Assembly: GCA_051294375.1 (NCBI GenBank)
Contig: CM119270.1
Span: forward strand, 260,713-324,712
Length of the DNA stretch: 64,000 nucleotides
Direction of reading: 5' to 3'
From: Paraspadella gotoi
Taxonomy: Eukaryota > Animalia > Chaetognatha
The translations under genes and the position numbers were made by a program. Shown here in pieces: positions 20,341 through 59,445 of this stretch. The notes under the pieces were generated by a model. That model was not told the DNA's origin. It did no database searches and worked only from the letters and a program-made list of their open reading frames with translations. Position 1 is the stretch's first letter; each line of letters begins with the position of its first letter.

Positions 20341-23151
20341 TATACCAAAAACACATAAGATATGACAAGTTAATCTGGTCGTTTATAATGTTATTTTAAA
20401 AAATATTTTACATTTAACTGATAGGAAATGATGTCAATATTGTTGAATGTAACATTTCAAATTCAATCGACCCCACAGCCGGTTGAAAATAATCAACAAA
20501 AAAAATGGTCATTTTCCACGCCCAATTTTTAAACAAATCTGCGTCGTTTAAATCTTTTCTTTTTGGTCCACTTAAATTTTTACTTTTGCCGAGTGACTTC
20601 ATTGGTATAAAAAAATTGATTTTCTTTGATATCTTTGAACCAAAAATGATAGAAACGATGAGACTGGTATCAATATTACAACCATAATTAATGGGGCATC
20701 TTTTCCATATAATTTTTTCTCAAAATATTTCGCAACGTGATTTTCTTAAAAAATCTGGATCGAAATCTTAGTCAAAAAGTATAACAACTTTTAAAATTAA
20801 ATTAAACACACCTTTGCTGTATTAAAAAAATAATGAATATAGATTCTGAAAGAGAACAAATTTGAATTATGTTTCTGATTATAACAAAAATTTTCTATAC
20901 CTGCAAATGTTTATATAAATTACTAAGGAAAATGAATTATCATTTTGTTGAAAACCAAAAATAAAAATTCATGAAGGAACTTAAAAAACATATGATTTAA
21001 ATAATGAAAATTTAGGAGTTTCAACTTTGTTCCGCGATTTAAAAACCTACTGACATAGGGCTAAAAGGCCTATAAAAATTAATCAGATTTTTAAATTTTT
21101 GTCCAATCTTCAGGTTGCAAATTAAAACCTTTGCCATAATGCCCATTAGCTATATTAATATAACTATTTTTTATTAAAAAAAGCATAAAACAATCTTTTT
21201 TAATAACACGCCAAAGCATGTAGCTGTATGTAAAATTGTTGTTTTTTTAATTTTTTTATTATTATACAAGGCTTTATCAAAATAAAGGGGTAATTGCAAA
21301 GAAAATAGTTATTTCAGGCTCCAATATTGATAACTATGATATCAATGAATTTCTTTGTTCCCGGCAAAGAAATGTACCTAAGACATTGTAAGTTCATTAG
21401 CTTAATCTTTTATTTTATAATTTTAAAAGGGCAATGTTTGGCAAAAACAGTAAGAAAACAAAAATGACAAAAATTTTTGGAGAAAAATTTGGATTAATTT
21501 GCTATTAATTTCTTACTATGTCGTCAATTTTTTTTTCGTTAATGTGCTTTGAAAGTTAGGCTAAAACCCAACAAAATCGCGAATCATGCATGAACCGCTG
21601 TATATTTAATTGATTTATACAGTAAGATACCGCAATAAAAAAAAATTTAAAAAAGAATTCAGACCAAGCGTCGTGTTATTTTCAGTATTTTTTTTTAGTC
21701 AAGACCTTAATGGATTTTCTTTGTTCCGGCGGCGTTGGATAGCCCAACACTGCAGTTTCAGAAATCATCCATGGTTTTGTAAATATTTACTGCGCTAAAC
21801 TGGTGGCAAAAAATTGGCTAGGAACCAAATTATCAAAACCGCTTCGTTCTTTCGGATTTTTTTTTAACGCGGAGCGTCATATCTAAAAACAGTATTGACA
21901 AAAATCAAAAACAGTAATTCAGTGTAAAACTAGAACCAGCAGTAACAAGTAAAACTAAAACTATTAAAATTCAACAAAAAAAAGACACTAACAGTTTAAA
22001 ATTGACTCATAAATAAAATGTTATGAAACTAATTCATAAGACTATAAAAATATAACGTTCAAGGAAACGCTTCCAAATTTCAAATTTTTAAAACAAAAAA
22101 ACATCAAAAACAAAGACACAAACGTTTAAATGGACTCAAGACAAACAAAAACAAAACACAAAAATATAAAGCAAAACGAAAAACAACGTTAATAAAAGTA
22201 ATAAACAAAAAAAAATTAATAAAAAAAAAAAAAAGAAACAAAAAGAAAAAATATAAGCATAAATGAAAATATACCTAAAATGTATAATTATAATGTGTTA
22301 AAAGTAAAGGGCAAAACTAGATTTTTTAAAATAATTTTAATAAATCGTAAAACCGGAAAAGTAAAAAAGTGTTTAAAGTAAAAAACAAAAAAATGTCTAG
22401 TATAAAAAGTGTATAATGCGAAAATGTAATAAACGAAAAACGTAAAACGTCATGGTTTTTATTTTTAAAAGCCGTCATTATAAGTATTTACATGCTTAGT
22501 GTATAACATATACCCAAAAATTTATAATTACAAATGTGTTAAAGTAAAGGGCAGAGGGACCACAACGCTATTAATAGAAATAAAAAACTACAATCAATAT
22601 ATATATATATATATACACACATACACATATTTTTAAATAATAATCAACAGAAAGACAACTAATAAAACAAAGACGCTAAAAACAGAAAGACACTAATAAA
22701 AACAAAAGACCTAAAAACATAAAGACACTAATAAAAACAAAAGACGCTATAAAACGCTATAAAAACGCTAATAAAACAGAAAATAAAACAAAAACAAAAG
22801 ACGCTAATTAAAACAAAGAGACGCTAAAAACAAAATGAGAACGCTAATAAATACTCAAACCTATATTAATAATACAAACAGACGCTAATAAACAAAGATA
22901 TAGATATGTGGTCCCATCAATACCTGAATAAGCCAAATACCCAATACGAAGATACCCTCATTGATTAATAAGTTCCCAATAGCCAATTTTAACCTCCGTT
23001 TAATTAAGTTTCCCCACTCTACAGTCCCATTCTGGTGGTGCCCTATCACCAACAGATAAATTAAAGGCTGTTGCTTTCGCATGCGCCTCGGTGGCTCAGT
23101 GGAACTAATGCACCAATCCCAATGTGCGTCCCTGTTCGAGCCCTGAGGTTG

Positions 23152-23234
23152 TCATAGTAAGAAAGTGGATGGACCGGGTAACCGCCTGTAGGCATGGGCC
23201 TACTTTGCCAGATCCAAAAGCTCTGACTACATGA
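23152..23234 (+). ncRNA. Putative P5-type twister ribozyme (family C, copy 1)
   Basis: P5 TCAT(a)GTA(a)G/CTACATGA; GA-TGGA (T1'); TAA cleavage motif; GC (T2); P3 GTAGGC/GCCTAC; P4 CAGA/TCTG; L4 TCCA-(A)AAGC. Confidence 0.65.
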
Positions 23235-23613
23235 ACATGCTGTCTCGCTGTCGCCAACGAGGTGGACACCGCTGCACGGGTGTGGCGCCCTGTAACCTCC
23301 TCCTTTCAATGGTGAGCCCGACTGATCCCGAACACGCACCCGGCATGATATACTCCTCTGCCTTGATGTGGGTTTGAAGCACACAGCCTGCCACTCAACG
23401 CAAAGGCCACCAGCAATGAAGAGAAGGTTCACGAAGAGACATGCGCTTCCATCCCCTGCTTCGTAACTCTCATATGCGAGAGTCCTGGGGCGGCTGTCTG
23501 GTGTCCCTATCACCAACAGATTAAATTAAAAGTGTTGCTTCGCAGCGCGCTCGGTGGCTCAGTGGGACTAATGCACCAATCCCAATGTGCGTCCCTGGTT
23601 CGAGCCCTGAGTG

Positions 23614-23693
23614 TCATGTAGAAAGTGGGATGGGACCGGTAACCCGCTGTAGGCATGGCCTAATGCCAAGATCCAAAGCTCTGGACTACATGA
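23614..23693 (+). ncRNA. Putative P5-type twister ribozyme (family C, copy 2)
   Basis: Perfect P5 TCATGTAG/CTACATGA; TAA-CCC-GC; P3 TAGGC/GCCTA; L4 TCCAAAGC; P4' TCTGG. A few 1-bp indels relative to copy 1. Confidence 0.65.
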
Positions 23694-25236
23694 ACATATA
23701 GCTGTCTCGCTGTCGCACGAGGTGACAACCCGCTCGGGTGTGGCGCCCTGTAAAACCAAGCCCCTCTTCACCACATCATTTAATGTGTTCCAACCTAAAG
23801 TCGCCTATATTTTACAATTAATCTCTTTCATTTGTTAAGTGCGCCGCGAGTTAGAGCACTCTATAGTCGTCGTCGGTCGAAATGTCAACAAGAAACAAAA
23901 TAGCGCTAAAACCTTTGTTTAAAAAAGAAAATATGAATAGAATAAAAGATCGAATTTGGATGCAGTATTATCAATTAATTCATTAGCGCTACCTTTTGTT
24001 TTAAAAAGAAATATGAATAGAATAAAAGATCGAATTTGGAAATGCAGTATTATTCAATTATTCAATTAGCGCTACCTTTTGTTTTAAAAAGAAAATATGA
24101 AATAGAATAAAAGATCGAAATTTTGGATGCAGTATTATTCTCGTTTTCACCACAAAAATAAAATGTGAAAGGAATCCTCGTAAGTTTAGCAAATATGCAA
24201 ATATGCAAATGAGTTTTTAAAATGAGGCTCGTAAAAACAAATGAACACTTAATTTCAACCTTTTGCGCGAGTCTGGTCGGCATTTTGAAAGTCCCTGAAT
24301 TTCTCTCGTTTCTTCCAAAATCGTCGTCGTTTTTGTAATTTGGAAAAGGATAAGATTTCTCATGACTGACCGAGCCACCGATAATGGTAGGGGCGGTAAG
24401 TGTGGTCGCCATAGCTTCGGCCGCATTGCCTATTGTGACAAAAAAATGAACAAAAAGGAAATGTAAATATTTAAAGTCCATTGAATATTTATTTTTAATT
24501 TTTTTTTTTAAAATTTTAATATTCAAAGATTCAACTTTGATTAAAACTACGCGAAAGTTTTGAATGAAAGCGATTTATTACAGTAATGAGTCTCTGAATA
24601 AATAAATAATTATTAATCAATTAATCGATTATCTTTGTTTGTAAAAAATTTACCGTATGTTTGTCTAGGGAATTTCCGAAACGCCAAGAGTTTTGAAAGA
24701 CTAAATTTATTAATTCCTTGCCGTGCTGCTGCTCTCTCTCTCTTCTTCTCTCTCTCTCTCAGTTCTCTCTCTCTCTCTCCTCTCTCTCTTTCTCTCTCTC
24801 TTCTCTCTCTCTCTTCTCTTCTTCTCTCTTCTCATCCTCTCTCTCTCGTCTCCTTCTCTCTCTCTCGCATGAAATTCGCGTTGTTGCGTTGGAAACAAGA
24901 AGGCTGGAAACCCGGAACTAGAAATGAAAAGGAAAGGAAAGAAAGGAAATGAAGAGAAAAGGAAAGAGGAAAAACGGAAGGGAACAAAGAAAAAAGAGGC
25001 GAAGAAAGGAAGATAAAGAAAAGAAGAATGTTTATTATATTATTATAATATATATTATATTAATTCATTTAACAATTAATCAAACTGAAAAAAACCAAGC
25101 AAAACAAATAACGTTTATATTGTTTTATTTTCTCTTCAATCTGAGTATCGAGTTTTCTCGCCAAACTCCTCGACCTCTAAAAAGGTCATACTCTCTCTCT
25201 CTCTCTTCCTCTTTCTCTCTCTTTCTCTCTCTTCTC

Positions 25237-25289
<53 letters not shown>

Positions 25290-25393
25290 TCTCTCCTTTC
25301 CAATATTTAAAGCTTCGGGTCAAAGTTCGAAAAAAGAAAAACCTGAGAAAACGATTTAGTTCAGGTAAACGAGCCAAGAAGGGAGAAGAAGGT

Positions 25394-25465
<72 letters not shown>

Positions 25466-26369: not shown

Positions 26370-26397
26370 TTAAGGATTAACATTCAATTCGTCTTTA

Positions 26398-26433
<36 letters not shown>

Positions 26434-29274: not shown

Positions 29275-29312
<38 letters not shown>

Positions 29313-30560: not shown

Positions 30561-31774
30561 GTCATAATTTTCCTTTGTGATCACGTGACCCCATTACAAA
30601 CTGTCACGTGACCTAAAAGATCACATGAACTCGGAATCACGTGAAAATTTAGGTTAAATTATTATCAGGTTAAGCATTCACGAGTTTACTACGTGATAGC
30701 TTAAGGTCAAATCTTTCTCGTCGTAAAAAAAGATTTTAACCCCAAAAAAACTATATTTTCGTTTTTACTTTTTCAATTGTAAGAAAATGAAGAGTGCGTG
30801 TTGAAAGGGCAAGAGAGAGAGAGTAGAGAGAGAGAGAGAGAGAGATGGAGGAGAGCAAGAGAGAGGGAGAAGGCAGTAGAGAGGAGAGAGAGAGGAAGAG
30901 AGAGAGAGAGAGAAGAGAGGAGAGAGAGATAGAGAGAGAGGAGAGAGAGAGAGAGAAGGAGAGAGAGAGAGAGGAGAGACGAGAGAGAGGAGGGAGCAGA
31001 GAGAGAAGAGAGAGAGAGAGAGGAAGGGAGAGAGAGAGAGAATTTTTTCATTAATGAGGAAAACAAATTGTAACGTTTGGAATACATTGATATCACATTG
31101 AAATCACATTGCTATTGACATGACATTGACATGACATTGACATGACATTATTATTGACACGACATTGATATTGATATTGACATAGACATTGCATAGGCAA
31201 AGAGAAATCATAAACCCTCTTGAGTCTTATTGCTAGATATGTAGACTGATAGAGTCTTGATCGAAAGCTTGGGCAAAAAAAATCTCGCAAACCCACTAGG
31301 CATACTAAGTGTGGGAGCTATGCACACCGTTCTATTAATTAGATCCAAATTTCCGAAAAGAGAAACCATTTTCTACAATTAGCAAAGTCGAAATGCCCCT
31401 CATGTTGAGCGATATAAAGTTCATAGATATTTATAATTTTATTCCAACACGTTGACAAACCTTAGAGCAAAAAAAAAAAAAAGAGTTGGGGCATGAAAAG
31501 GTTTATGAAGACGTTTAATAACGCCAAACCAAGTTGTCCTTTCATCAACCGCATTTTTCTTTTCATAATAAATACAATGAGAAGAACTGGAATGAAATCC
31601 GGCATCAGAAGGCAAACGAACCACCCGAACCCACTGAAAAGCGGTTCATTGCGTTGCTGCTCTGAACGGTAACTCGTTTTTGCTGATGAGACTAACTGGA
31701 CGGGAAAAACTGAACATGTGACCAAGTATTTAGATGATGATAGGAGCTGATCTGAGTCTAAGACTACGATCCGT

Positions 31775-31915
31775 ATCTTCTTTGCACGCCTCAGCAGATA
31801 TGGAACGGGTCCTGGGCTTGGAACCAGGCTTGAGGATGGGATTGAAACCCGGTACCTAGTGGTCATGAGCTGATGGCTTCACTCAACGAGATTAAAAAAC
31901 GGTAGGGTCATGCCA
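31775..31915 (-). mobile_element. Family A repeat with internal deletion
   Basis: GGGTCCTGGGCTTGGAACCAGGCTTGAG joined directly to GGGATTGAAACCCGGTACC...GGTCATGAGCTGATGGC. Confidence 0.8.
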
Positions 31916-32054
31916 CAGTATTATCTTGCAAGTTTTGTTAGTTTATTTATTAATTAAATGGAAAATTTTATAATGTGTGTACCAATTTAATATAATAACA
32001 AAAAACTGAAAACAAAATTTAAAAAAAAATTGACACGAGGATTCTTTCTTTCTT

Positions 32055-32093
<39 letters not shown>

Positions 32094-32762: not shown

Positions 32763-34630
32763 ATGGAGGAAAATAACGAGAGGTAAAACGACGTCACAGT
32801 GGTTTTAAATTTACCTGTCGATTGAAAGAATTATTACGTTGCAAATTAGTTATCAATAAATTTAGGTATAAATATATTTAAAAAATGGCCCGCTTTATCT
32901 TAAATTTGGAATTGACCGGTCGATCGGTATAGACCGGTTGGTGGTTATAACCGGTCGGTCGGTATTGACGGGTCGGTCGGTATTGACCCAAACAATGATA
33001 CAGTAGCATTGTTCGCTCGATCGTTCACTCGATTTTTAACTCAATCGTTCGCTCGATCGTTCGCTTAATCGTTCGCTTAATCGTTCATTAAACAATTGTT
33101 CAGTGCCGCCGCCGCCGCCGCCGCCGCTGCCCCTGAGGACCGCGCCGACCCTGAGGACGACGCCGCCACTCAATCGACGCCGCTACCCGACGCCGCTTCA
33201 ATTCAAACGACGGACGACAAATCGACGCCGAATTTAGAGGAGCAAGAGACCGAATCTCCTGTCGCCGCTTCTCCTGCTCCAGTAGCCAATTCTTCCGCTC
33301 CACTCGCCTTTCCTACAACATCAACGGACGCTACAGTATCAACAGAGCCAACAGGCATTACTTCAGCTGCTGGAGCCGACCCAGCAGCTCCTTTGGAAGG
33401 AGCAACTGCTCCAAAAGAGGACTCTGTAACAGCAGCAGCCGCTATTCTCGCTCCAGCAAGCCCCGTTTCCGCTCTTCAAGGTCCAGCGAAGAACACCAAG
33501 TACCCCAGCGCAGGAGCCGGGCGATCCGCTTTGCTGGAGCGACGCCTCTCCCGTGGAGTTCCTAAATATTTTGACTCTGGGGATTACAATCTGGCCAAGG
33601 CTGCAAGGGATCCCAGGAACAAGAAGGTGAGAAGAACAAGAGATATAATGAACAAAAAGGTTATGAGAAAAAGAGATCTAATGAACAAAAAGGTGAGAAG
33701 AACAAGGGTTATAGGAACAAGAAGGTGAGAAGAACAAGAGAACTAATGAACAAAAATGTTTTGAGGATAAGAGATCTAATGAACAAAAAAGTGAGAAGAA
33801 CAAGAGATCTTAGGAACAAGAAGGTGAAGGAACAAAATAACTTAGGAATAAAAAGGTTGAAAAAACAAAAGATCTAATGAACAGAAAAGTTGAAGAACAA
33901 GATAAATTATGAAAAAAAAAGATTGAGAGAACAAGAGATCTAATGAACAAAAAGGTGAAGGAACAAAAGAACTCAGGAACAAAAAGGTTGAAATAACAAA
34001 AGATCTAATGAACACAAAGGTTGAGAAAACAAGAGATCTAAAGAACAAGTTATTCTCAGAAAAAAAATTTAAAAACATCAACTTCGTAAGCATAATTATT
34101 TATAAACCGAAAAAGTTTGATAATTTTCGAAAGGGATAGTTCGCAGGGCAGGGTTTAAGTGTGTTATTGTCATATAAGGCGCTGACACACACTGACCCTC
34201 CTTAGTCTTTAATGTGCAAGATAGCTCATTTATTAAATGAAGGGATAATTTTTTCATATTTTCATATTTTTCATAGCTAATGTTAAAAGATTATTACAAA
34301 AATACAAATGATAAAAATCCTCTCATCTCTAAATCTCTTTCTCAGCCAATCGACCTCACGTATCCAGCTTCTCTTCGCGACAAGTCGCCCTCCGCTTCTT
34401 CCTCCACGCCCTCGGCAACCCCATCCCCCGACCCGCCCGCCAAGGCCACCCCTAACCCGCTCGTGCCCGAGACGGTTCCTCCAACGGCCTCCGTGCCCGA
34501 TGGGTCATCCACGACCGCGACGGCTCCTCGGCCGCCCTCGTCGATCGCTTTGCAACATCGTCGCCTTTCGCGTCAAAGATCCAAACTCGTTGATGACGGA
34601 GAGTTTGGGGTGGAGACGATGAAGGCTTGA
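32763..34630 (+). CDS. ENSA: Endosulfine / ARPP-19 family PP2A-B55 inhibitor
   Basis: Exons 32763-32782, 33104-33626 and 34346-34630 are phase-compatible with GT/AG. Signature KYP...LLERRLSRGVPKYFDSGDYNLAKA; C-terminal RRLSRQRSKL. Confidence 0.9.
33615..34050 (+). repeat. ~33-bp minisatellite starting at the ENSA exon 2 donor
   Basis: Unit ~AACAAAAAGGTGAGAAGAACAAGAGATCTAATG, about 13 copies. Confidence 0.9.
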
Positions 34631-34949: not shown

Positions 34950-35000
<51 letters not shown>

Positions 35001-42354: not shown

Positions 42355-45300
42355 CAGATAGAGAGAAAGATAGTGAAGTAATTTTCAATCGTCTTTTCGT
42401 TTTTTCAGATTTGTTCAAAAATCCCCAAATGTTCTTCTCCGGTCGAGACTTTCCCTCTGACAGTCCCATGGACCATCCTTTCGGCAGTCCCCATGGCAGT
42501 CCCCAAGGCAGTCCCCATGGCAGACCCTACGGCAGACTCCATGTCAGACCCCAAGGCATTCTCAAAGGCAAAGGCAAGCCCATCGACGTGACTTCTCTCC
42601 TGGAATCAATATCTTCACAAGGAATAATTGAATTCACCATCGATGCGAAAATTACCTTCGAGGAAAAAGGAATGAATGGTGAGAGAGAGATATCTCAACG
42701 TTGTGAGTTGCTCACGATGTCACTTTATGAGTCACTTTTTGGTCGGTCCGTCGGTCCATCAGTCAGGCCCTTATGTTTTAATAATTTAAATAGTTTAAAA
42801 CTCGGGTAATACCACATTATTTAATAGATTGTAGTTAAATAATGTAACCAGTGCAAGTTTAATAGTATTTGCTCCGTCACCTGATTCTCTGATAAAAAGG
42901 TTATATAATGGAAAATATAATGTGGCATAATTCATATGAATACTGAATATTTTAGGATAACACTTAAAATAAATATTGGGAATCAATAAACACCATAAAA
43001 ATATTTACTACATGGTAACATGATTAAAGATTAATACAGCTGTTTTGTATAACATTTGATTATTATAATCAATATGTTTTATAATTGTAGAGTCAAGTAA
43101 TTGTGTTCAAATGCATCTTCCAAAGAAAATCACTGTAGCGCTACATTCTTTTTTTTTATCACAAGCGTGAGGTCTTTCGTCAAAATCGCCAAATAATTCA
43201 TGAGCTTAATTACCAGGTCTGGGATTTATGCTGAATATTTCTCCGGCATTGCAAATCGGCTTTGAAATAAAAAGTCAACAAATACGAATCTATGTAAAAA
43301 AACTACATGAAATAACCATTAATGATTGTTTATTACCTGGGCGACTTAATAGCAAATCTGAACTTGGACTTACTCTGGCTTGGAAAAGGGGTTTATGCAA
43401 CGTCTTCATTGATGGAAATAAAATGGGACCCAATTTACAATCTGGCAAAGGTATGTGGATAGGGCGCTAAGTGGGCTGAAGACTCCTATCCGTAACTTCT
43501 GTGCCACCTCAGCAGCCATGAAACGGGACCTGGGCTTGGAACCAGGCTTGAGAGTTATCCAGGACCCCAAAGCTTCCCCAACGCTTCCCGCAGGGTAGAT
43601 ACCGGGTTGGGATTGAACTCGGTACCAGGTGGTCATGAGCTGAGGGCTTTACTCAATGAGCCACTGGGTCGTAAATGGTCTGCTAGGTCTTAAGAGTCTG
43701 CTTAAAAGTCTTAGGAGTCTTCTTAAAGGTCGGCGTTATATTCCCAGAATTCCCAATTCCATGTTAAATTCAGAATTAGATTAGGGATTAAGTTAGTGAT
43801 TAGGGTTAACGATTAGGTTAGGCATTATGGTTAAGGATTAGGGTAGCGATTAGGTTAGTGATGACTATCCATAACTTCTATAAACCCCTCTAGCAGCCAT
43901 AGAACGGGTCCTGGGCTTGGAACCAGGCTTGAGGGTTATCCAGGACCCCAAAGCTTCCCCAAGCTTCCCGCAGGGTAGGTACCGGGTTGGGATTGAACCC
44001 GGTAACTGGTGGTCATGAGCTGATGGCTTTACTCAATGAGCCAATGAGCCACAACTGAAAGTGTCATGCTTATAGGCGGGGTGAACCTAGGCAATGCCCG
44101 ACTACAGTGATTAGGATTAAGTATTAGGTTAGTGATTCGGGTTAGGAATTAGTTTAGAGATAATGGTTAGGGATTACGTTAGGGATTAGTATTAGAGACC
44201 AGGGCTTAAGGTTAGACGTTAGTTAACATCGCCCTATCTATAATTACCAATAACAATGATTAATAATTACTTTTAATTATTATTATTAATTAGTATTCAT
44301 TATCTTTATTACCAGTACCAATGATAATGTTTTTTTTTCTTTTAAGGCGAAATTATTCTTCATTCACCATCTCACAACCAAAGTATTTTCATCGGAAGCA
44401 AACCAAATTCACGCATCACATTGAAGAGCCTTCGCGTCTGGAACAAAGCTCTCACGGACGAAGAAGTGAAGGGAGAGAAGACGATTCACAGAAATCACGT
44501 GGTGCTCGATTCACCCGCGACTTATCACTACGACATTCAGGGAGGAATGGAGCAAATTAATTGTCATTCGTGAGGGAAAAAATAATTAAATATCAAAAAA
44601 TCTCTAATGATTAATTTCATAGAGAAGAAAATAATAATCTTTGAATTTGATTACAGATCTATGGATTCAAACTAATACTAAATATTAATCCTTTAAAATG
44701 AATAAAATTTAAAAAAAATAATACTAAAAGGCAACAACGATTTTTTTTTTGTTACACTTGTCAAAAAACACTTATGGAGAACATTTTCAAAAATGTAATA
44801 CTGTCGCACGCTTTTTTACATATTTGTACTACTTATTTAATATTTATACTAATTTTCTAATCACAAGTTTTGTTGTATTGTAGTGGCCACACTGAAAAAA
44901 ATATTGAGAATTGACATCAATGGGGCGCGAACCAATTGTTCCTTCGTGAGAAGAGAGAATGCTCCAATTTAAACCACAGTATAATAAATACTCGTCACTT
45001 CTACAGCTACGTTTCTCAAATCACTAATTAAATAAATTTTTATATTGGTTGTACCAATTTCTTAAATTAAAAAATATTATAACCATAAACTCCGGCTCTT
45101 CACCTTCAAAGCCGACCCCTTTTTACCACCTTTTAAAACCACCCAATCCACTTTCGACCCCCACCCAACATTCGACAGAACACCTTTCTAAACCATCTTT
45201 CGTCTCTAAATTACTTTCGACCAGTGTTAGATCCAAAGACTCGCGAATCGTGATATCTGAGTTCGAACTTTACTTCGTCACAAGGATTTATCGTTTGGAT

Positions 45301-46373
45301 CATTTCGTCATTCGTGCTTTGGTTTATTCATTGGTTTTTGAGTTTATACTGATTTTTGTCATTCTTTTGAGTGTTTAAATAATAATTTTGATAATTATTC
45401 TTTATTGTACTGTTTGGAATATCTATATGCTTTGATTATTTTATTAAGGTACCCTTTTTAAAGAAATAAAGAGACTTTTTGATCGTCGATCCGCTCAAGC
45501 AACCAAATCATGCCTTTGAAGAATCACTGGACTACCGAAGCATCTCGCCGGGGTTGAGGAGTTTCCTCAAATATTCTTCGAATATTCTCGGGGGCGTTTT
45601 AGGAGGAGGACGGACCGGCGGGTCCTAACACCAGCGGGACGGGTCCTGGACTTGGAACCAGGTTTGATAGTTTTCTTCGCCCCCAAAGCGATTTACGAAC
45701 ATCTACACGCTTTCTCCAGGAGTAGGTACCATTGGGGATGGATCGATCGATCCCGGTACCTGATGGTCATGAGCTGATGATATTACTAAATGAGCCACAG
45801 GGTCACGACTGAAGGTTGCATACTTATAGACAGGGTGAACATTAGCGCGGAGTATAAATACAAAACATGAAAAATCTAACTTCGAGCCCTCTTGATTTTT
45901 TGACTTGGATATAAACTTATTACCTAGGGTATAAAAAACTAAAATTCCATCGCCCAGTTTTCCCGTCCTAGCCAGTTTATAATAGGACCGAAAGTCAAAA
46001 AATGCAAAAAAATTAACAATATATGAAATTAAAGATGTCAGTTTTAATTAATATTTTTTCATATATTATTGCTAAAATTAAAGTAATATTGACAGATTTT
46101 ATGATTTAAAACATAAAATATTGATATTATAAATTTTTTAAATTCTATAAATTATGAATTATTCTATCCAGAAACCGCAAAATTGAGCAAAATGGGAAAA
46201 ATTGGCGCCCCTAANNNNNNNNNNATAATCCGCGCTAGTGAACATATTGCGATGCAGAAGAGACAACAATTAATTATAAATCTCTCTCTCTCTCTCTCTC
46301 TGCCCCTTACCCCCGGGCACATCCTTTTCTCCAAACAGCTAAAGTGAAACGCATCGTTTCATTCGTCTCCATG

Positions 46374-46412
<39 letters not shown>

Positions 46413-49400: not shown

Positions 49401-49921
49401 AAAATCACAAACAACAACATCAATAACGTAAACAACATCTATTGATATACACTTCATCAACAATGTAAACAACAACATAGCAAAAACAACCACATAAACA
49501 ACGTGATTAAATGAGACTGTGAGAGAGTATTGATTGAAAGCTTGCAGGGATCTGCTATGTCAGTATTTTTTAAGAGTGATGGAGGCCTTAAACCACCAAA
49601 GTCTCTCCAAAGTCAGGGGCAAGATAGCTTATTTATTAATAATGGATAATTTTTATTTTGTTCTACCAATTCCATAAACATAAGCAACAACAACAACAAC
49701 AACGTCCCAACCTGTACGACGCTATTGATTCCCACATCGAAATGAAACAGCGCCATCTCGTCCACGAGTCTTTCCCGCGAAAGAAGAGACGTTGACGCTC
49801 TGACCACGCCCAGGCCACGCCCCCTCGACGCGCGACTTGAGCGACGCCACGGACGTACGGCGGAGACGCCGTCGATACGGACAGTGAGGCGTCCGTCCAT
49901 CGTGCGTACGCGAAGCCACAT
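35817..49921 (-). CDS. UHRF1: E3 ubiquitin ligase UHRF1 (UBL-TTD-PHD-SRA-RING), 9 exons
   Basis: Exons 49712-49921, 49025-49072, 47127-48747, 46420-46787, 38247-38484, 37570-37777, 37206-37394, 36851-37037, 35817-36188; all GT-AG and phase-compatible. Motifs: [116 protein letters not shown]. Exon 1 has internal frameshifts. Confidence 0.96.
36295..36415 (+). mobile_element. Family D short interspersed repeat (copies 49505-49625 -, 39800-39905 -, fragment ~55737-55770 +)
   Basis: Shared GCCCCTGA(C/T)TT(T/G)GG...CTTTGGTGGTTTAAGGCCTCCATCACTCT...CAATCAA(G/T)ACTCTCTCACAGTCTCA. Confidence 0.7.
38588..38712 (-). mobile_element. Family A fragment retaining the GA-GGAC-GGCCG-TAA core
   Basis: Minus strand reads GAGGACGGCCGTAAGCTACTTTGGGGGCCTGGAAAAC...TTCAGCCCATTCAGCGCCTTATC. 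Confidence 0.65.
38705..39000. repeat. 20-bp minisatellite (TAATCCTAAACATTATCCTC)n
   Basis: About 14 copies, read directly. Confidence 0.95.
39400..39745 (-). repeat. 5 x 69-bp tandem array of tRNA-Leu 3' halves ending in CCA
   Basis: The minus-strand unit contains CAGTCTCTTCGGAGGCGTGGGTTCGAATCCCACCGCTGCCA+CCA, i.e. the variable arm, T arm and acceptor 3' strand of eukaryotic tRNA-Leu (NAG). No 5' half is present. Confidence 0.85.
41169..44573 (+). CDS. Nested antisense gene in UHRF1 intron 4 with a C-terminal LamG/pentraxin (ConA-like) domain; 5' end unresolved
   Basis: Phase-compatible GT-AG exons 41169-41311, 41518-41662, 42067-42153, 42409-42678, 43217-43450, 44347-44573 (TGA); AATAAA at 44701. 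C-terminal [34 protein letters not shown] is typical of LamG/pentraxin folds. Confidence 0.75.
43458..44106 (-). mobile_element. Family A head-to-tail dimer (copies 43458-43675 and 43865-44106)
   Basis: GGGCTTGGAACCAGG recurs 381 bp apart. tRNA-like A box TGGCTCATTGAG and B box GGTTCAATCCC, then P5 GCGGG/CCCGT, P3, P4 CCTGG-TTCCAAGC-CCAGG. The TAA core is deleted. Confidence 0.85.
45625..45845 (-). mobile_element. Family A repeat
   Basis: Minus strand reads ...AAGCGTGTAGATGTTCGTAAATCGCTTTGGGGG...CCTGGTTCCAAGTCCAGGACCCGT. Confidence 0.8.
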
Positions 49922-50021
49922 CGTTGGTTGTTGCGTTGAAAGGCGGTGCTCGTTAAGTGGATTCCTTTTGATGGATGGATGGATGGATGGATGGATAGAT
50001 AGAAGAAACAGATAGATAGAT

Positions 50022-50260
50022 AGTATGGTGGACTAAAATCCACCAACCGTTCATTAGCGGCCATTGGCCGGAGGCAAGTCATTCGCCTCCCAACCCAAAG
50101 GTCCGGGGTTTCTAGCCTGGTGGTCGCCTAGCAGTTAAGAGGGACGGGGCGCTTAACCCGCCTGTAACATGGTGTTACAGCCTGATCCGAAGCTCAGGGA
50201 CTGCTTATATAGAACGGTTCTGTCATTAACAAATATCAATAATTACTGTCTCTTCAATAG
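50022..50260 (+). mobile_element. Family B, best-preserved copy: terminal hairpin + tRNA-Gly-like head + twister
   Basis: Hairpin GGTGGACTAAAATCCACC; tRNA-like 50057-50127 (acceptor GCGGCCA/TGGTCGC, TTCGCCTCCCA, GGTTTCTAGCC); twister 50130-50205; enclosing stem AACCGTTC (50045)/GAACGGTT (50212). The same ends occur in the copies at 58.2 and 59.2 kb. Confidence 0.85.
50130..50205 (+). ncRNA. Putative intact P5-type twister ribozyme
   Basis: P5 AGCAGT/ACTGCT; P2' GAGG; conserved GA 50143-44; T1' CGGG; TAA (predicted cut 50154|50155); P2 CCC; T2 GC; P3 TGTAACA/TGTTACA; P4 CCTGA/TCAGG; L4 TCCG-AA-GC. P1 is minimal or absent. Confidence 0.8.
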
Positions 50261-51408: not shown

Positions 51409-51467
<59 letters not shown>

Positions 51468-51842
51468 AAAAACAAGCAACCATCATACAAATAGAAGTGA
51501 ATGTAATTCGTGTTATTTTAACGTTAACAACATTTAGAAATTACGCATATATACTGTTTATTATATAAATAGACTATGCAGCGGGAAAATCACCGTCCAA
51601 GTGATTAAAACTTTTTCGCGATTTTATAATAATAATAATAATAATAAAAATAAGACGCGAATTTTGTCTGAATTTAAACATTTTATAATAATAATAATAA
51701 TAAAAATAAGACGCGAATTTTTGTCTTAATTTAAACATTTTAACGTCCGACAATTAAGAAAATTCTATTCTATTAATAAAAAAAGTAAGTTTCTATTAAT
51801 AAGAAAAGTAAGTTTCTATTAATAGGAAAAGTAAGTTTCTTT

Positions 51843-52954
51843 TTATCTGACTCCTGAGTCACTGAGATCCCCGTTAATTCCCGAGTTGTTGTTGTTGTTG
51901 TTGTTGTTGTCGCCGTCGTCGGGGGCTAAGTTGTTGTTGTTGTTGTTGTTGTCGTTGTTGTTATCGCCGTCGTCGGGGGCTAAGTTGTTGTTGTTGTTGT
52001 TATTATTCTGTTCTAAATTATCCGGAGTTCTTCTTTCTTCCGGAGTTTTAAATCCGTTGGGCAGAGGACTTGATCCTGGGGAAAAAAGGCGGAGAAAGTT
52101 TTAAATGGAATGAAAAAGTGAGACAAAGTGAGGCTTTTTAAGTTTTGGATCCGTTTTTGCGACAATTAAGAACTGGCACGAAGTATGCTAGTAAAATAAA
52201 CAAAGTCCGCTGTGGTTAATTACGCTCACTGATACAGTTGATAGCCCTCCAGTCAATAATGATTCTAATGCACGAGTCCCTTTTTTTAAAAGGCAAAGAG
52301 ATATTTCGTATTCAAGTAGTTTTATCTCTAAAAGAAATGACGCCAGGTTCTAGCCTTGGCCAGAACGGTCCTTGCCAGGTTCTAGCCCTGGTCAGCGCGG
52401 CCCTTGCCAGGTTCTAGCCCTGGTCAGCGCGGTCCTTGCGCAGAAGTGTCGGGCCGGTTAAACCAGCAGTAGCAAGCCCGATTAGGGAAGCAGGGCCCAC
52501 TGGTCGCTTCAAGAGTGGGAGCGAGCAATGAACACTTGGAAGGGAACTTGGCTTCCTGCTTTACATTCTCGGTCACTGAGGCCGCCTTATTTCCCTGTTA
52601 CCATCTTAAACGCTAAAAACGCCACTAAAGAACGCCATTAAAAATGCCCCTGAAGATCGCCATTAAGAACGCCACTAAAGAACGCCATTAAAAATGCCCC
52701 TGAAGATCGCCATTAAGAACGCCACTAAAGAACGCCTCTCTCTTCGCTCACCATCTTCGGCGCTAAAGGGCGCCGGTGTGTTCCCTCTCGGCGTTGTCGA
52801 CGGCGTCACTTCTTCATTATAAAGTGGACTGTTGACCTCGACGTCCCAGAGCGGCGCCAAACCTGGAGTCTCGTAGACATCGTCGGCGTTGTCCATGGAG
52901 AGAGAGTTCACAGGTTCCATCTAAAGAAGTTATTGGGTTAATAGAGGGATGAAG

Positions 52955-53024
<70 letters not shown>

Positions 53025-55379
53025 ACCTGATTCTTCTCTCTCTCCATCTGCAACATCCTCTCCTTCTCTCTCTGATATTGAAACTTCTGCGCGCTGAGAG
53101 CGAGTGCTCCGTCCATAGCGCCGACTCCTCCGTACGGACCATAGGCCGGATTGGCTCCGGCATAATTGCCGAGAGAGGGAACTGTTTTGATGTTGTAAGT
53201 CGGACTGTCACCGTAGGCGATCTGTAAAAGAGGATGAAGTAGAGGAAGAGAGATGAAGAATAAGAATTTTAACAAAAACCTTATTACACTGTCCTTTTTA
53301 ATATTGGTTATGCTTTGCATTAATGTTTGGCTAATTGCCTACCAAGTGAAAAATAGTTTAGGTTATGACACTACTAAGTAGGGTTAAATGGATATATTTT
53401 TAAAGTTTTAATTATACATCTTTGAGACTAAATACCCGTATCTGAGCTATGTACCTCGAGGAGGTAGGAAAATCCTATTGAACTTTTACCCATTTTTAAG
53501 TAATTGAAAACTTGGTTTTTGTTCACCGTTCCTTTTATCAATTTAAACTTAAAAATAAATATAAAAACTGTCATTATCTCACCATTGATATACTTGAGAT
53601 AAAGCATTACCATGTATATCATAAAAATTTTACCATTGTCATATCTAAATATAGCTATCTAAAAGTCAGCATCGCCATTTTTAAATGTAGAAATTGTCCT
53701 ATATTAATAATATCTTAATTTTGATATTACTAAATCTGTATATTATTTATCGGGTAAGTCTTTACACAAACCTCCCTTACCTCTTGAGTCATTTTTGCAT
53801 TCCTTCTCAGCCTGATGACACAGACCGTGATAAAGATGACGGCGATAGCGCCAGCAACGCCACAGACAGTGACAATGATGAGAAAGTAAACGTTAGAGAA
53901 TTCGCCCTCGGCCGCTGCTAGAGGGACGGCCTAAATGGGAAGAAGAAGAAAATTCTAAAATCTCATTTACATATTGGAGTGTAAGTAGAAGTCTAAGTTT
54001 GAGGGTGTTAGTTTATTTTTAAGAGAAAAATCTAAATCAGAAAAAAAAATATAAATTCTTAGTTTTAACTTTTAAAAAGAATCAGTTCTTAAAATTATCA
54101 GTTTTATATCTGATTTTTAGATTTAGTTTGGCATCTTTGCAACAGATTCAATAAGGCACAGTTGCACTAGATTCACAGATCACACTCACAGTGACTCCGC
54201 TGTTCTGCTGTTTTTGGATTCGCTTTTTTTCTTCTTTCGATTTTTCTTCTAAATTCGCGTCTTTTCTTTTAGACCGAGAATTCATATCCGATGAATCTGA
54301 AAAAGGAATAAAAATTCATAGGAGAATTTAATTCACGTGAGGATGTGACATGATATGCTGTTCATCGAAACGTTAACTACCAGCACAACTTCGTGGCTCA
54401 CTGCTCGACAGACCAAACGACCAATTTACTAACACCTCATCTTTAATCATTCATCAATTTTATAAAGTTTTGCTTTACATCCAGTTCGCCATATATACCG
54501 ACCATTCATCTGCTAGCAAAACTTAGCGAATCATAGCCCACAGACAGACCCCTCAACTTGCATTTTGACCCCTTGTGTCTCATTGAGATTCATAAATTTT
54601 TTTATCATTGACCGACCCACCAACCTCCCAATTGCCAGCCCGACTTAATGATTCACTGCCCGACAGAGAGACCGACCAACTGACCCGGTATTCCGACCCG
54701 CTCCGTTTCATCGTCCGTCAATCGACGTCGAGATTCGACAAAACTTTTCTTCTCTTCGACTTTGTCTTCGGTGAGAGATGGAATGAAGACGACGTCGGGG
54801 TCCGCTGTTGGTTGGATTAGAGGAGAAGTCTTTCATTTGTAAAGTTACAATAATAACGTGAAGGATATTAATAATATTTGGAAAACTTAATGATTTTGAA
54901 ATCTTATTTAAATTATCCTTAAAAAGGTAATTTTAATATTAAAAAAAAACCGAATCAAAAGATATGATAAACCAACTTAGCATCTACAATATGCAAATAA
55001 GATTTAAAAAATCGATCACATTTAAATCGAACCAATAGTTTCTCTGCTACAGAGGAGAGAGACGGAAGATAGAACGAAATGTAGGATTCTCGCTCAAAAA
55101 TGTAATTTTAATTACACTGAACCCTTTAAATGATTCAAAATATTGCAACCCTCACTACCTCCAATTATCGTCCCTCACTCCTGTGAAATCACAACGCTCA
55201 CTACCTCCAAATTAGTTTCGCTCACTCCTGTGAAATCACAACGCTCACTACCTCCAAATTAGCGTCGCTCACTCACCGAATTCCATGGCGGCGCCGTCGA
55301 CGAGTCCGGGATTTTCGGCGCCGCAAGTTGACGCCGCTAGCGCCGCCAACGACCCCAGCATAAGTTTGATCAAAATCAT
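51843..55379 (-). CDS. NPDC1: NPDC1 / cab-1 family type I membrane protein, 7 exons
   Basis: Exons 55277-55379, 54685-54804, 54190-54296, 53781-53930, 53027-53221, 52752-52920, 51843-52075; all phase-compatible. Signal peptide MILIKLMLGSLAALAASTCG, TM YFLIIVTVCGVAGAIAVIFITVCVI, then DGALALSAQKFQYQREKERML...VYETPGLAP.WDVEVNSPLY, matching the NPDC1 cytoplasmic motif. Confidence 0.85.
52342..52440 (+). repeat. 3 x 31-bp repeat of a T-arm-like hairpin (CCAGGTTCTAGCCCTGG)
   Basis: Read directly; resembles the family B T arm. Confidence 0.8.
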
Positions 55380-57379
55380 TTCGTTTCCCTTTTGTTTATT
55401 TAGTGTTTTTCTTGTTGTTGTTGTTGTAGTTGCGACGAGTTGTGGATGAGAGAAAGAGATGATCTCATCTCATCTCATTTCTTTCTTCTTTTTCTCTCAT
55501 CGCGAGAAAAACTTTTTTAGGGAAAATTTAACATTTCTTTTGTTTACTTATTTTTTATTAAAAAACCTAAAAAAAGAAAAATGGAAATCGTGCAATTTTT
55601 GCCCTTCATAAAAAAAAAAATATTGTGAAACGTGAAACTTGAAATATAAAATTTAAAATTATCTATTTTGTTGGGTTTTTTTTTAATCTTAAAAAAATTA
55701 TGATATTATCGTTTCATTCAATAAATTAATTAAATTCCCTCCTGACTTTGGACAGGCTATAAGGCATCCGATAAAAAATTGCAGTAAATCGGTCGATGCG
55801 CACGAAAATTAAACGATATAACTTTATAAATATGTATTACTTCCGGTTCAAGTTTTCATGTCTGTAAAAAAAAAAAATTAAACTACAACGCAATGACATA
55901 AAAGCCGAGAGGCGTAAACTGTCTGCTCAGTTTTTTCCCGCCTCGCCGTAAAATTACGCCCATCGCGACAAATAAATATATTCTTGTCTTTTTTTAATAG
56001 ACACGTTTGTACAGACAAACAAATTTAGATGGAATTGAAGTTTAAAGAAAAGAAAGGAATCCACCAATTTTCCAGTCGTAGATTAAATGAAGACCTTACG
56101 TAACCTTTATCAAACTGTGACGAGTTAAGTCTGAAAAACAGGATTTCTTGACTAAAATCTAGAAAATAAAAGAAATAAATATTGAGTGGAGAAAAAAGAA
56201 AAATAAATAGAATTCAGACAGAAACTCGTGATAAAATAACAAAAAATAAGCCGTTGGTAAATTAGTAACTTATTGATAGCATTTAGCGGTAGGCTTAATC
56301 ATATTAAAAACACCTTTATGAAGAAGAAAATATAGACAAATTGACGTCCTGAAGCAGTTATCTGCACTGCGGATCTGACTGAAAACAGTTAATTTTTTTT
56401 TCCTTTGAAGAAAATATGGTATCATACTGACAGAAAGTTAAACATTCAGACGTAGAAAAAAATGACAGAAAGACAAGTCTACTAATATGCGTATTTAAAA
56501 CGTGCAGGACGCTATCTATAAAATTATAAATGTAAGTTAAATAGATTTTTAAAACTCGCATATGAGTCGAGATGAAAAAATTTCGATACGAAACTTGAAT
56601 TTTACTTCGTTTTTTTTTGTACAAAAATTAGAGTTTAATTTGGTATCGCAGTAGTAAAATGAATTAAAATTTAGTTAAAAACACGTAGCGAAATGTAAAA
56701 ACTGTAATATAGTAGCAAAAACTAATTAAGTATGAGATTAGAACGGTATGATTTTTTTTTTACAAACAAGGCATGCGAAAATAAAGCCGAAAAAGGTCCG
56801 GTTTCTTTATTCAAAATTGTTGTTTGTAAACGTTCTAACGTTCTAAGATTAAATAATAATTTATTAATCAATAATAAATGTAATAACGATGTTTTGGTTC
56901 AAATAGATTTTAAATAATTTTTTCATCAACGTAAGATTTTCAGCAAACTTCTTTTTTCTTTTGTTAATATTTTTTTATGTTTTATCTTATTATTAATACA
57001 ATTTTTAATCCATTTTTTTTTCTACAGGGTTGAACGCACTCAGTCAACGGAGGCGAAATTCCCATAAAAAAATTTCGCTTATTCTATTCAATTAACCAAA
57101 TTATAATTGAGGTGTTTTTTTAGTCCACAGTATAATTTTCAACCTGGAGAGATAAATGTAATATCATTAAAGTCACGACTTTTTTTAAGGTAAGCCTTAT
57201 TCAGTACCACATTAGATATGGGCCTGCCTGATGACAACCACCCAATAAAGGGGTCATGCTGTATTGTTATCTTGTTAGAGAAAAGATAATTTGTTCAAAT
57301 TCCAAAGTCAGAAGGCAAAAAGAATGGATGAATTTTCGTTTTGCTTTCACTTATTTATTTAAGTATTCGTGGATAATAA

Positions 57380-57635
57380 ACAACCTGGGCTGAAGAATGC
57401 TTTCCGCAACTTTTTTAACACCTCGCAGCCATGTAACGATTCTTGGGCTTGGAAACAGGCAAGAGGGTTTCCCAGGGCCGCAAGGGGGTCTACGGCCGTC
57501 CTCACGCTTCCCGCCGGTTATTTACCATTAGGGGATCGATCCCGGTACCTGATGGTATTACTCAAAGAGCCACCGGGTCACGACTGAAGGTTACATGCTT
57601 ATAGGCGAGATGAACATATTGAAATTCCCGACTAT
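57380..57635 (-). mobile_element. Family A repeat with a degenerate twister (57436-57514)
   Basis: Minus strand reads GCGGG AA GCGT GA GGAC GGCCG TAG...G CCTGT TTCCAAGC CCAAG A ATCGT. Confidence 0.8.
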
Positions 57636-58221
57636 CTATTCATCTTTTGCCAAAAAAATATTCTTATATTTGCGTCGTTAATTATAAGCGAATTATATAT
57701 TATTATATATATTATTATTATATAATATACCATAATTGCAAGTTGTTAAAAATTCTCTTTTGTGATTAAATCATTTCTAGTCGAACAAACCAAAAAAATT
57801 ATCTCAAATAGTATTTGTTCCCCTGGGAATTTGTTCCCCTGGGAATTTGTTCCCAGGAGATTATTTTTTTTTATTCCAGGGGATCAATTTCACAAGAGAT
57901 CAATTTCACAGGTGGTCCTTCGCAGAGTCACATTAGTTGTCGTTGTTGTGATCTTTGATGCGGGCGAGAGACAGATTATCTTTTTGACGGAGGTGGGAAT
58001 TTTAACGCGAGAGAAAAAAGAGGAAGGAAAACGTAAAATGATTGGGAGGTGACCATTACGGTGATTGGTGGTGATTGGTAGTGATTGGGGGTGAGTGGAG
58101 GGTAGGGGTGGTGGTTGGTAGTGATTTGTAGTGATTAATAGTGATAAAAAGTGTTCGTAACGGCTTAATCTTTATAATAAATAAGTTATTTTGAAAAATA
58201 GCGAACTCACGATATTTACAA

Positions 58222-58425
58222 TATTGAAGAGACAGTAATTATTGTTATGTGTTAGTGACAGAACCGTTCAATTTAAGCAGTACCAGGCGGGTTAAGCGCC
58301 CCGTCCCTCTTAACTGCTCGGCGACCACTGGGCTAGAACCCTGGACCTTTGGGTTGGGAGGCGAATGACTTGCCTCCGGCACCAATGGCCGCTGACCAAC
58401 GGTTGGTGGATTTTTATCCACCATA
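58222..58425 (-). mobile_element. Family B copy with P3/P4 deleted
   Basis: TAAGCAGTACCAGGCGGGTTAAGCGCCCCGTCCCTCTTAACTGCT...GGTTGGTGGATTTTTATCCACCATA. Confidence 0.85.
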
Positions 58426-59228
58426 AATTATTATGGCATAATATCAAAGTAATTTTTAAATTTCTCTGTTTCTAGGAAATATTTTAATTTGTAAGTTAAC
58501 AAAGGACATAATATAATTCGGAAAATGTTATAAGTGAATGCAATATCATCAATGATAAATCGTTAATGAAATCGTTAATGATATCAATGATAAATCATTA
58601 ATGCTATCGTTAATGACATCAATGATTAATCGTTAATCTTCGCTTCTAATGCGATGACGACGAAAATTATTCCTGTTTTGAAATTAAATTTTTTTGTTTA
58701 TTTCCTCAAAAATCAGGTCCACGCCGTTGTTGACTTTTTCGATAGCTAATGTCGGTGGATTAAGTTTAAATATTTCAGCGTTAGAGCGTTTAGTTTTTTT
58801 TCGTTTCCCTTTTCCTGTTCGTTGGTTGGTTTGGAAAATAAAACTTAATTATATAACTGTTTATGAAACGATTTACATGTTCAGAGAATTAAATCGAAGT
58901 CAACCTTTCCTTTTTCGGGTAAGTATTTCCAGTAACGAGCTGCATTCTCCGCGGCAGCAGCGTCGCAGCGCAAAAAAAAAAAAATTGCGGATCCTGAGTT
59001 AGTTTTTTTCTATTGAGTTTTTCGATCGCAAAAGCAGCAGTTGAGCTGCCGCGTCAGAAGCGACAGCAGACTTACCGCATCAGGGAAACAGCGGCAACCA
59101 TAAAATCGAGAAGAGACGAACAGGTTTCGGAGCCGAACAAAGATCGGGACTCCATCGGACGAATATTTTTGGTCGGTCAGTCCGCTCTTGTCTGTCGGTC
59201 GGTCTGGTTAATCGGTTAATAAATTAAT

Positions 59229-59445
59229 CTATTGAAGAGACAATAATAATTGTTAAGAGTTAGTGACAAAATCGTTTAACATAAACAGGGCTTCGGATCA
59301 CCCTGCAACACAGTGTTGCAGGCGGGTTAAGCGCCCCGTCCCTCTTCACCGGACTAGATCCCCGGACCTTTTGGTTGGGAGGCGAATGACTTGCCTCCTG
59401 CACCAATTAACGATTATGAACGGTTGGTGGATTTTAGTCCACCAT
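59229..59445 (-). mobile_element. Family B copy with a compensatory P3 change
   Basis: P3 reads TGCAACA/TGTTGCA versus TGTAACA/TGTTACA at 50163; L4 TCCGAAGC is retained; P4 and P5 are damaged. Confidence 0.85.

Follow-up and report, generated by a model that had tools for sequence, protein, structure and literature searches.

A miniature LTR element with tRNA-like promoter boxes and a variant P5-type twister fold in the chaetognath Paraspadella gotoi: a candidate LTR retrozyme

Introduction

Small non-coding retroelements with long terminal repeats (LTRs) have been described in two forms that are close to the sequences reported here. Helenus elements (TRIMp3; Kojima 2024, PMC10886601; this and the other sources are cited from the parts of their text available to us) are non-coding TRIMs (terminal-repeat retrotransposons in miniature) of less than 1.3 kb that have A and B promoter boxes in each LTR, a primer-binding site (PBS) as well as a polypurine tract (PPT), and plant LTR retrozymes (Cervera et al. 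2016, PMC4918200) are non-coding elements with a ribozyme in each ~300-bp LTR, a PBS and a PPT. Here we describe a 741-bp element of the chaetognath Paraspadella gotoi, called family C, which is like both of these and has a predicted twister-like fold in each LTR, together with related repeat families A, B, D and F. All results are drawn from one 64-kb stretch of DNA, the window (64,000 nucleotides; GenBank assembly GCA_051294375.1, contig CM119270.1, positions 260,713 to 324,712 of the forward strand, numbered below from its first letter), which is eukaryotic, has ~37% GC and is rich in GA microsatellites.

The likeness to Helenus extends to solo LTRs and the presence of several families per genome, to the tRNA-Trp PBS, which is also found in wasp Helenus and in Gypsy-32_NVi, and to the TG...CA-type starts and ends that many animal Helenus LTRs share with families A and F (PMC10886601). 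The target-site duplication of Helenus is 4 bp (in animals) or 5 bp (PMC10886601). In Helenus, however, the tRNA-like head is near the LTR 3' end and, judged by eye, a T-run mostly comes soon after it, whereas here the head is followed by the twister and 55-100 nt that are free of TTTT. The available text of the Helenus paper reports no ribozyme (the word 'twister' has 0 mentions and 'ribozyme' one, in a reference), and 12 short twister-core motifs, sought in its supplement, brought up no twister-like context, with the proviso that line breaks in that file can hide matches (PMC10886601).

Plant LTR retrozymes also have short duplications, solo LTRs, and a unit between the two cuts that would become circular and serve as template for a Gypsy enzyme (PMC4918200). 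They differ in their type III hammerhead, tRNA-Met PBS and circles of 600-1000 nt, whereas the element described here has a twister variant, a tRNA-Trp PBS, a predicted unit of 461 nt, an animal host and built-in A and B boxes; plant retrozymes are said to be without an internal promoter (PMC7761336). The Rfam scan of the window gave no hammerhead match, and both C LTRs hold a predicted twister-like fold.

The published type-P5 twister has the same order of parts as the fold found here (P5-P2-GA-T1-(P1)-UAA-P2-GC-P3-P4-L4-P4-P5), with two pseudoknots and with the catalytic G and A in the same places (PMC5408937). Ours differs from it in having a P2 of 3 bp with a bulge, no intramolecular P1, an A-U pair in P4 (families B and C) and an AC/GT T2 (family F), and in being invisible to the Rfam models. 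Among animal retroelements, the schistosome twisters at the 5' ends of the RTE long interspersed nuclear element (LINE) Perere-3 are alike in their retroelement link, weak or missing P1 and similar P3-P4, but they are of type P1 with a canonical 4-bp P2 and belong to a coding LINE that has no LTR, PBS or tRNA head (PMC8501958); unpublished truncated twisters at RTE 5' ends are mentioned in PMC7761336. SM-alpha, the non-LTR retrozymes and the Penelope hammerheads are likewise short animal repeats with a ribozyme; they differ in having type I hammerheads, tandem arrays, a link to Penelope and no LTR, PBS or PPT (PMC6765202, PMC7229834, PMC7761336, bioRxiv 10.64898/2026.07.22.740005).

Results and Discussion

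Family C forms a two-LTR element

A sequence-only reading of the window had described families A, B and C as an A/B-box tRNA-like head followed by a P5-permuted twister, and all three are present in that form. It had placed them in a short interspersed nuclear element (SINE), SM-alpha or non-LTR frame with a Penelope or RTE partner. The two family-C copies, spaced 461-463 bp apart, are instead the two LTRs of one 741-bp element at 23030-23770 (LTR 279 bp, interior 186 bp, LTR 276 bp), whose parts are as follows:

23030-23308, plus strand: 5' LTR (LTR1), 279 bp, with a CA end; the 5' TG is damaged by read noise
23092-23102 and 23133-23143, plus strand: A box and B box of the LTR1 tRNA-derived head, with 0 and 1 mismatch to the box consensus
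23152-23234, plus strand: P5-type twister variant of LTR1, a noisy copy; predicted cut at 23179/23180
23309-23494, plus strand: internal region of 186 bp that occurs once in the window; its longest stop-free frame is 61 codons
23310-23326, plus strand: PBS, complementary to the tRNA-Trp 3' end, starting 1 nt past the end of LTR1
23487-23494, plus strand: G-rich tract directly 5' of LTR2, a weak PPT (12 purines in the last 20 nt)
23495-23770, plus strand: 3' LTR (LTR2), 276 bp, TG...CA; A box at 23555 and B box at 23597
23614-23693, plus strand: intact twister core of LTR2; predicted cut at 23640/23641
23180-23640, plus strand: predicted 461-nt unit between the cut sites, a candidate circular RNA

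The 13-mer that follows LTR1 equals the tRNA-Trp PBS in Fig. S2 of PMC10886601 at 12 of 13 nt, and this is the only site in the window that matches that PBS with one mismatch or fewer. Mismatches in the A and B boxes, here and below, were counted against the A- and B-box consensus.

The element lies in a part of the window where sequence quality has to be considered. The first ~25 kb (1-25200) are a redundant, noisy assembly of 2-3 copies of one locus, with 75-98% identity and the many single-base gaps of uncollapsed long-read sequence; for example, 11720-13796 and 18203-20278 are 87% identical with 203 gap columns. An alignment of LTR1 with LTR2 has 4 substitutions and 32 gap events, and one of the redundant flanks has 2 substitutions and 46 gap events in 762 bp; because the gap events in the LTRs mirror this read-error pattern, the two LTRs are probably near-identical.

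Some observations count against a complete element. It is the only full-length one in the window and is known in raw-read-quality sequence. Its absence from an assembly duplicate of the locus is in its favour, but that duplicate is also without the 2.7 kb to the left. The flanks (CCCA on the left, CCACA on the right) give only an approximate target-site duplication, compatible with 5 bp, and the PPT is weak, a G-rich 8-mer with 12 of 20 purines in noisy sequence. With these points in mind, we still consider it highly probable that family C represents a complete Helenus-type TRIM. The adjoining 2.7 kb (20300-23029), which opens with a long T-run, is possibly a separate minus-strand retro-insertion or an assembly chimera.

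As the LTRs of a TRIM whose PBS fits tRNA-Trp, the two C copies indicate an LTR retrotransposon as partner and not the Penelope or RTE element that had been proposed. By analogy a Gypsy enzyme is the likely one, because animal Helenus share primer sites with Gypsy elements (PMC10886601). The same reading's view of a diversified, non-autonomous retroelement group in which a twister takes the place of the hammerhead is supported.

If these repeats were tRNA-headed SINE-like or non-LTR retrozymes moved by a LINE (RTE) or Penelope enzyme, C would be a tandem dimer and its PBS a coincidence. In its favour, family B, to which alone such an explanation could also apply, lacks duplications and TG...CA ends, the P3-P4 of B and C resembles by eye that of the RTE-linked schistosome twister (PMC8501958), and SM-alpha provides a combination of a Pol III promoter with a hammerhead (PMC6765202). 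However, the PBS match is placed exactly after the CA end, and families A, B and C have a conserved stretch of 33-70 nt on the 5' side of the tRNA head, sequence that in a SINE would go uncopied. There is also no common poly(A) or simple-repeat tail, the 3' ends are fixed, the 186-bp spacer is not repeated, and LTR, PBS and PPT are absent from the animal non-LTR retrozymes in the available description (PMC7229834). We therefore regard this explanation as improbable.

The predicted fold is a twister variant with a bulged P2 and a palindromic linker

Family copies were located by nhmmer profile search of the window (family A matches at E<=6.5e-9). An earlier count of about 20 copies or fragments agrees with the 19 loci found, which are 12 of family A (13 nhmmer matches, one locus being split), 5 of B and 2 of C; collapsing the assembly duplicates leaves ~15 independent repeat copies. 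A further family, F, came out of a covariance model made with copies of A, B and C and without F, which matched at 49565 (E 0.001) and 36296 (E 0.006). The best copy of B and the two full copies of F are:

50024-50259, plus strand: family B, best copy, with a 5' hairpin, a tRNA cloverleaf at 50057-50128 and a long-range stem that encloses cloverleaf and twister
50130-50205, plus strand: twister of that copy, an intact variant; predicted cut at 50154/50155
49512-49674, plus strand: family F, TG...CA, with a 4-bp duplication; twister variant at 49565-49625 without P3, T2 AC/GT, no A/B boxes
36244-36409, minus strand: family F, second full copy, with 3 of 4 flank bases duplicated

The pair counts are in line with the claim that the pairings co-vary. 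An alignment of seven copies has 77.2% of its cells paired, against 60.9+/-3.3% after shuffling, with both sides changed in 13 of 18 pairs; in a 9-copy alignment that takes in the new families the values are 81.3% against 61.0+/-3.0%, both sides differ in 11 of 14 pairs, and slid controls do not exceed 44%. T1 (3 bp) is paired in 81.5% and T2 (2 bp) in 72.2% of the cells of the 9-copy alignment, with two-sided changes. These pair counts include three linker pairs and come from related copies, and they are not probabilities. Tuned on the copies themselves and partly post hoc, a descriptor written on the published twister core scored 11 of 11 at two sites in the window, and in 200 shuffles no score of 10 or more came up.

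GA, UAA, GC and U-NNN-AA-GC are conserved in the published twister order, and GA, TAA and AAGC had been noted in the consensus of A, B and C. The cut-site UAA, the GA of L1 and the U-NNN-AA-GC of L4 are intact together in B 50130 and C 23614, which are the only copies of those three families to keep the whole core; F 49565, which has AA-GT with a compensated T2, brings the total to 3 of the 14 scored copies, the other 11 being damaged. Two of the helices as first quoted needed correction. T1 had been given as 4 bp with one mismatch in A, but this mismatch vanishes because T1 is 3 bp in the crystal structures, and the pairs become CCG/CGG, CCA/TGG and TCC/GGA. The P4 quoted for family C occurs in its full form in neither C copy (regex search).

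Two departures from the canonical twister had been overlooked, a bulged 3-bp P2 and a palindromic linker in place of P1. The canonical 4-bp P2 is present in none of the 14 copies, and a 3-bp P2 with a bulged base, which varies between families, is complete in 9. P1 is replaced by a 6-nt linker within which at most one intramolecular pair is possible, and the central four bases of the linker are self-complementary in 12 of 14 copies, as four different tetramers; of the two exceptions, one has the palindrome shifted by one base and the other is decayed. Family F, which had no part in building the model, keeps the bulged P2, T1, the palindromic linker rule and a compensated T2 (AC/GT). Scanned for the core's 5' half, the window yielded 12 matches (shuffle mean 5.2, maximum 11), 8 of them family copies, and 9 of the 12 are palindromic, compared with a mean of 0.39 and a maximum of 3 in 300 shuffles. 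The calculated self-duplex energies of the linkers are -8.1 to -10.7 kcal/mol (B, C LTR1, A 57498 and D) and -5.9 and -4.4 kcal/mol in two others, on a scale where 1.4% of all hexamers attain -8 kcal/mol. Because the inner pairs cannot form within one strand, the conservation of the palindrome points to intermolecular pairing.

A number of findings speak against an active twister of this kind. The pair counts come from 7-9 related copies, and the structure they presuppose was itself read from these. P2 is 4 bp in all twister structures, and a change in its length has been suggested to disturb the active site (PMC5408937), so the absence of a canonical P2 has to be set against it. The P4 G-C pair is called essentially invariant (PMC5408937), and the closing pair here is A-U in B and C as opposed to G-C in A and F. 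The Rfam twister models give no match in the window at E<=10. Architecture patterns run beyond the window found 1 match in metagenomes, 0 in prokaryote genomes and, in viral sequences, 0 and then with looser patterns 3 and 0; three of these four matches (L001, L003 and L004, with L002 left out) were scored, and they have no T1, P4 or palindrome. Finally, a twister without P1 cleaves at near the wild-type rate (PMC5408937), and since P1 is thus dispensable for cleavage the linker need not dimerise.

Retroviral RNAs have 6-nt palindromic dimer-initiation loops. The fold could be a non-catalytic fossil of a twister in a Helenus-type TRIM, retained now only as an RNA dimerisation or packaging signal that acts through the palindrome. 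The non-canonical P2 and P4, the core damage in 11 of 14 scored copies, and a sub-lineage of A in which two well-preserved copies have the cut site deleted are all in keeping with such a fossil; however, in those two copies the palindrome is gone too, inserted copies would be expected to decay, and the catalytic G-A and U-A-A are common to A, B, C and F in spite of compensated changes in the helices. We consider a fossil fold decidedly unlikely. On the basis of the modelled fold, the intact copies probably do self-cleave, and the chance that cleavage depends on a ribozyme dimer appears to be somewhat short of even.

Promoter boxes, transcript and possible replication cycle

The A and B boxes are best preserved in C and in the best of the A copies (0-1 mismatch). 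Across family A they have 1-2 and 0-3 mismatches, respectively; in B the B box has 1-3 and the A box is weak; F has none. The design of tRNA-like head plus twister thus holds for A, B and C as had been stated, but the head is not obligatory, as the family F twister without A/B boxes shows. On the sense strand TTTT is absent from the 771 nt that span the C element, and the first TTTT is at 23810, past LTR2. TTTT-free windows of 680 nt make up 47 of 2291 overall and 29 of 276 at >48% GC, the C element itself included. The distance from B box to first TTTT is 186-666 nt in 6 of 6 heads tested.

These features suggest the following cycle. RNA polymerase III would start at the LTR1 head (~23085) and read through both LTRs to the TTTT at 23810. 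The twister is predicted to cut U/A in both LTRs, which would release a unit of 461 nt that ends in a 5'-OH and a cyclic phosphate; as the fold is P5-permuted, half of the ribozyme would stay on each end of the unit and the ends would be held together. If plant retrozymes are a guide, a host ligase would then close the circle (RtcB efficiently ligated animal retrozyme monomers in vitro; PMC7229834), tRNA-Trp would prime at the PBS, and a Gypsy-type reverse transcriptase would go round the circle and rebuild both LTRs without a strand jump. The 461-nt unit has no terminal repeat; in plant retrozymes such a lack is overcome in this way, by circularisation and tRNA-primed copying round the circle (PMC4918200). 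More tentatively, P1 would form between two ribozyme copies, since the 6-nt palindrome cannot pair fully within one molecule, and this might favour cutting of the two-LTR precursor and spare the circle, which has one ribozyme. Penelope hammerheads with a palindromic short stem III are known to cleave as dimers (PMC6765202).

The predicted circle is 61% paired with a z-score of -0.20, and LTR2 has a z-score of -0.26, neither better than shuffles, while known retrozyme circles are described as highly self-paired (PMC7761336, PMC7229834); this is a point against a circular intermediate. Family B (best copy, 50024-50259) does fold better than shuffles, with a z-score of -2.69. Read errors of ~10% may depress the fold z-scores of family C. 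The ordinary stability of the predicted circle would fit another role for the ribozyme, in which it only makes the RNA 3' end. After a Pol III start in LTR1, the LTR1 ribozyme would often be passed uncut and the LTR2 cut would replace the T-terminator, yielding a linear RNA whose terminal repeat is ~95 nt long and which is copied by an ordinary strand jump, with no circle. The twister does occupy the position of the Helenus T-run, and a weak P1 could slow cutting, but the same ribozyme is present in both LTRs and nothing obvious spares the first. Cutting of both would moreover take away the terminal repeat, a loss that plant retrozymes make good by forming circles. We think such a purely 3'-end-forming role unlikely. 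By analogy with the plant elements, we lean towards the C element spreading as an LTR retrozyme by way of a self-cut, likely circular RNA.

Families A, B, D and F

The copies of A and F are likely to be solo LTRs of C relatives, since they have TG...CA ends, some with 4-5-bp duplications. A copies begin TGTAG and end CYACA; F is 163-166 bp long. Exact duplications of 4-5 bp flank one copy of each family, that is 1 of 2 full A and 1 of 2 full F copies. For A 57368-57636 the null expectation of such a duplication is 1.8% (5-mer) or 5.2% (4-mer). The kinship of A with the others rests on the core fold, because whole-copy similarity exceeds that of shuffles for C with B, D and E and does not for A with B or C. 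The other full A copy is without a target-site duplication, and the B termini are TA...TA-like with the duplication absent from 2 of 2 informative copies; both facts argue against a solo-LTR origin. B has fixed ends that resemble the inner ends of C and is related to C in sequence, and its copies are possibly solo LTRs of C relatives as well. The B head scores just 14.5 bits as a tRNA in the Rfam scan.

No A copy has an intact twister core. Two well-preserved copies, at 43522 and 43903, have the same 11 nt deleted, a loss that runs through the cut site. The remaining features of these families are:

57368-57636, minus strand: family A, full-length, likely a solo LTR, with a 4- or 5-bp duplication and a decayed twister at 57435-57516
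43832-44106, minus strand: family A, 5' end intact, with the 11-nt deletion through the cut site
43454-43700, minus strand: family A, 3' end intact, with the same 11-nt cut-site deletion as 43832-44106
45622-45866, minus strand: family A, truncated, decayed twister
13167-13423, minus strand: family A, full-length, decayed, no clear duplication; assembly duplicate at 19640-19899
38585-38720, minus strand: family A 3' fragment, whose end pairs with A 5' ends (terminal inverted TGTAG/CTACA)
31735-31890, minus strand: family A fragment with internal deletions, a profile match
61368-61487, minus strand: family A 5' end and head only, a profile match
12307-12420, plus strand: family A-like head whose 3' part has diverged; duplicated in the assembly at 5030 and 18752
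58222-58425, minus strand: family B, P3-P4 deleted, no target-site duplication
59230-59446, minus strand: family B, with the 5' strand of P5 deleted, a damaged P4 and no target-site duplication
18043-18204, minus strand: family B, 3'-truncated and decayed; assembly duplicate at 4444-4573
52340-52610, plus strand: family D (new), a single decayed copy with a B-type B box in short tandem duplications and a palindromic linker at 52453-52458; GA is missing

A further A-like 5' end and head, interrupted by an N gap, is at 6010-6075 on the minus strand. Several A copies occur within or next to TTAGGG-rich, telomere-like tracts, in both orientations (43780-43860, 44110-44220, 38700-39000 and 13430-13510), and it is possible that A copies prefer such tracts as targets; the tracts are part of a different repeat whose end is shared (37086-37174, 39015-39070). 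The A copies 44106 and 43700 were rejected as an LTR pair of one element, as were the B copies 59446 and 58425, which have no PBS and no shared duplication between them. ARAGORN's single call in the window, a tRNA-Pyl at 52353-52431, coincides with the short tandem duplications in family D and was rejected as a tRNA gene.

Fragments of the F 3' part are found at 31939-31998, 34190-34255, 41832-41871, 45035-45068 and 55704-55769, and at 31920-31940 two F P5 strands seem to be joined with the intervening twister deleted. At 39400-39747 there are five 69-bp tandem units, each with the complement of a tRNA 3' half; the start of the unit matches the tRNA-Leu PBS in Fig. S2 of PMC10886601, a decayed F-like LTR starts 70 bp downstream at 39819, and the array may have arisen by amplification of the PBS in an F-type TRIM.

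Weak model matches at 4048, 63025 and 44944 were not counted, because a second model did not recover them. The first (4048-4134, and 17640-17720; E 0.003) is in the duplicated region and is perhaps an old twister remnant. The other two are in related repeats at 62960-63090 and 44915-45000 that have a B-box-like motif and weak, unconfirmed twister-like remnants (E 0.45 and 2).

Other features of the window

The window also has NPDC1-like exons at 52675-53930 on the minus strand and endosulfine-like exons at 33081-34630 on the plus strand, both with matches under the Pfam cut-offs; a protein search gave four relatives of the endosulfine-like gene at 86-92% identity. A GC-rich minisatellite with a ~41-bp unit is at 63228-63542, and inverted GC-rich minisatellite arrays at 1273-3070 (duplicate at 9469-11266) include a perfect hairpin near 2965-3038.

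Meaning of the finding

In the full-text literature searched (Repbase, Dfam and subscription journals were outside the search) we found no twister in an LTR, a TRIM or a tRNA-headed repeat, and no natural dimeric twister. Taken as a whole, the proposal is tentative, and we give it clearly less than an even chance of being right in all its parts: family C would be the first retrozyme built on a twister and the first of the LTR type to bring its own promoter, a Pol III TRIM with a new twister subtype (bulged 3-bp P2, P1 only between copies) in which the two-LTR precursor is cut, solo-LTR transcripts and the circle are spared, and a 461-nt circle is copied by Gypsy.

Such an element would unite Helenus, which has a Pol III promoter in the LTR and is without a ribozyme, with the LTR retrozymes, which are mainly from plants and have only hammerheads. 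It would offer an account of how a Pol III LTR element can read through LTR1 and yet define its RNA end, and likewise of the way in which retrozymes are transcribed. In its P2 the twister subtype departs from a 4-bp rule that was thought to be structural, and because it does so and escapes Rfam, twisters in animal repeats may be undercounted. If it is true that cleavage needs a dimer, this would be a natural dimer-dependent twister that parallels the dimeric hammerheads.

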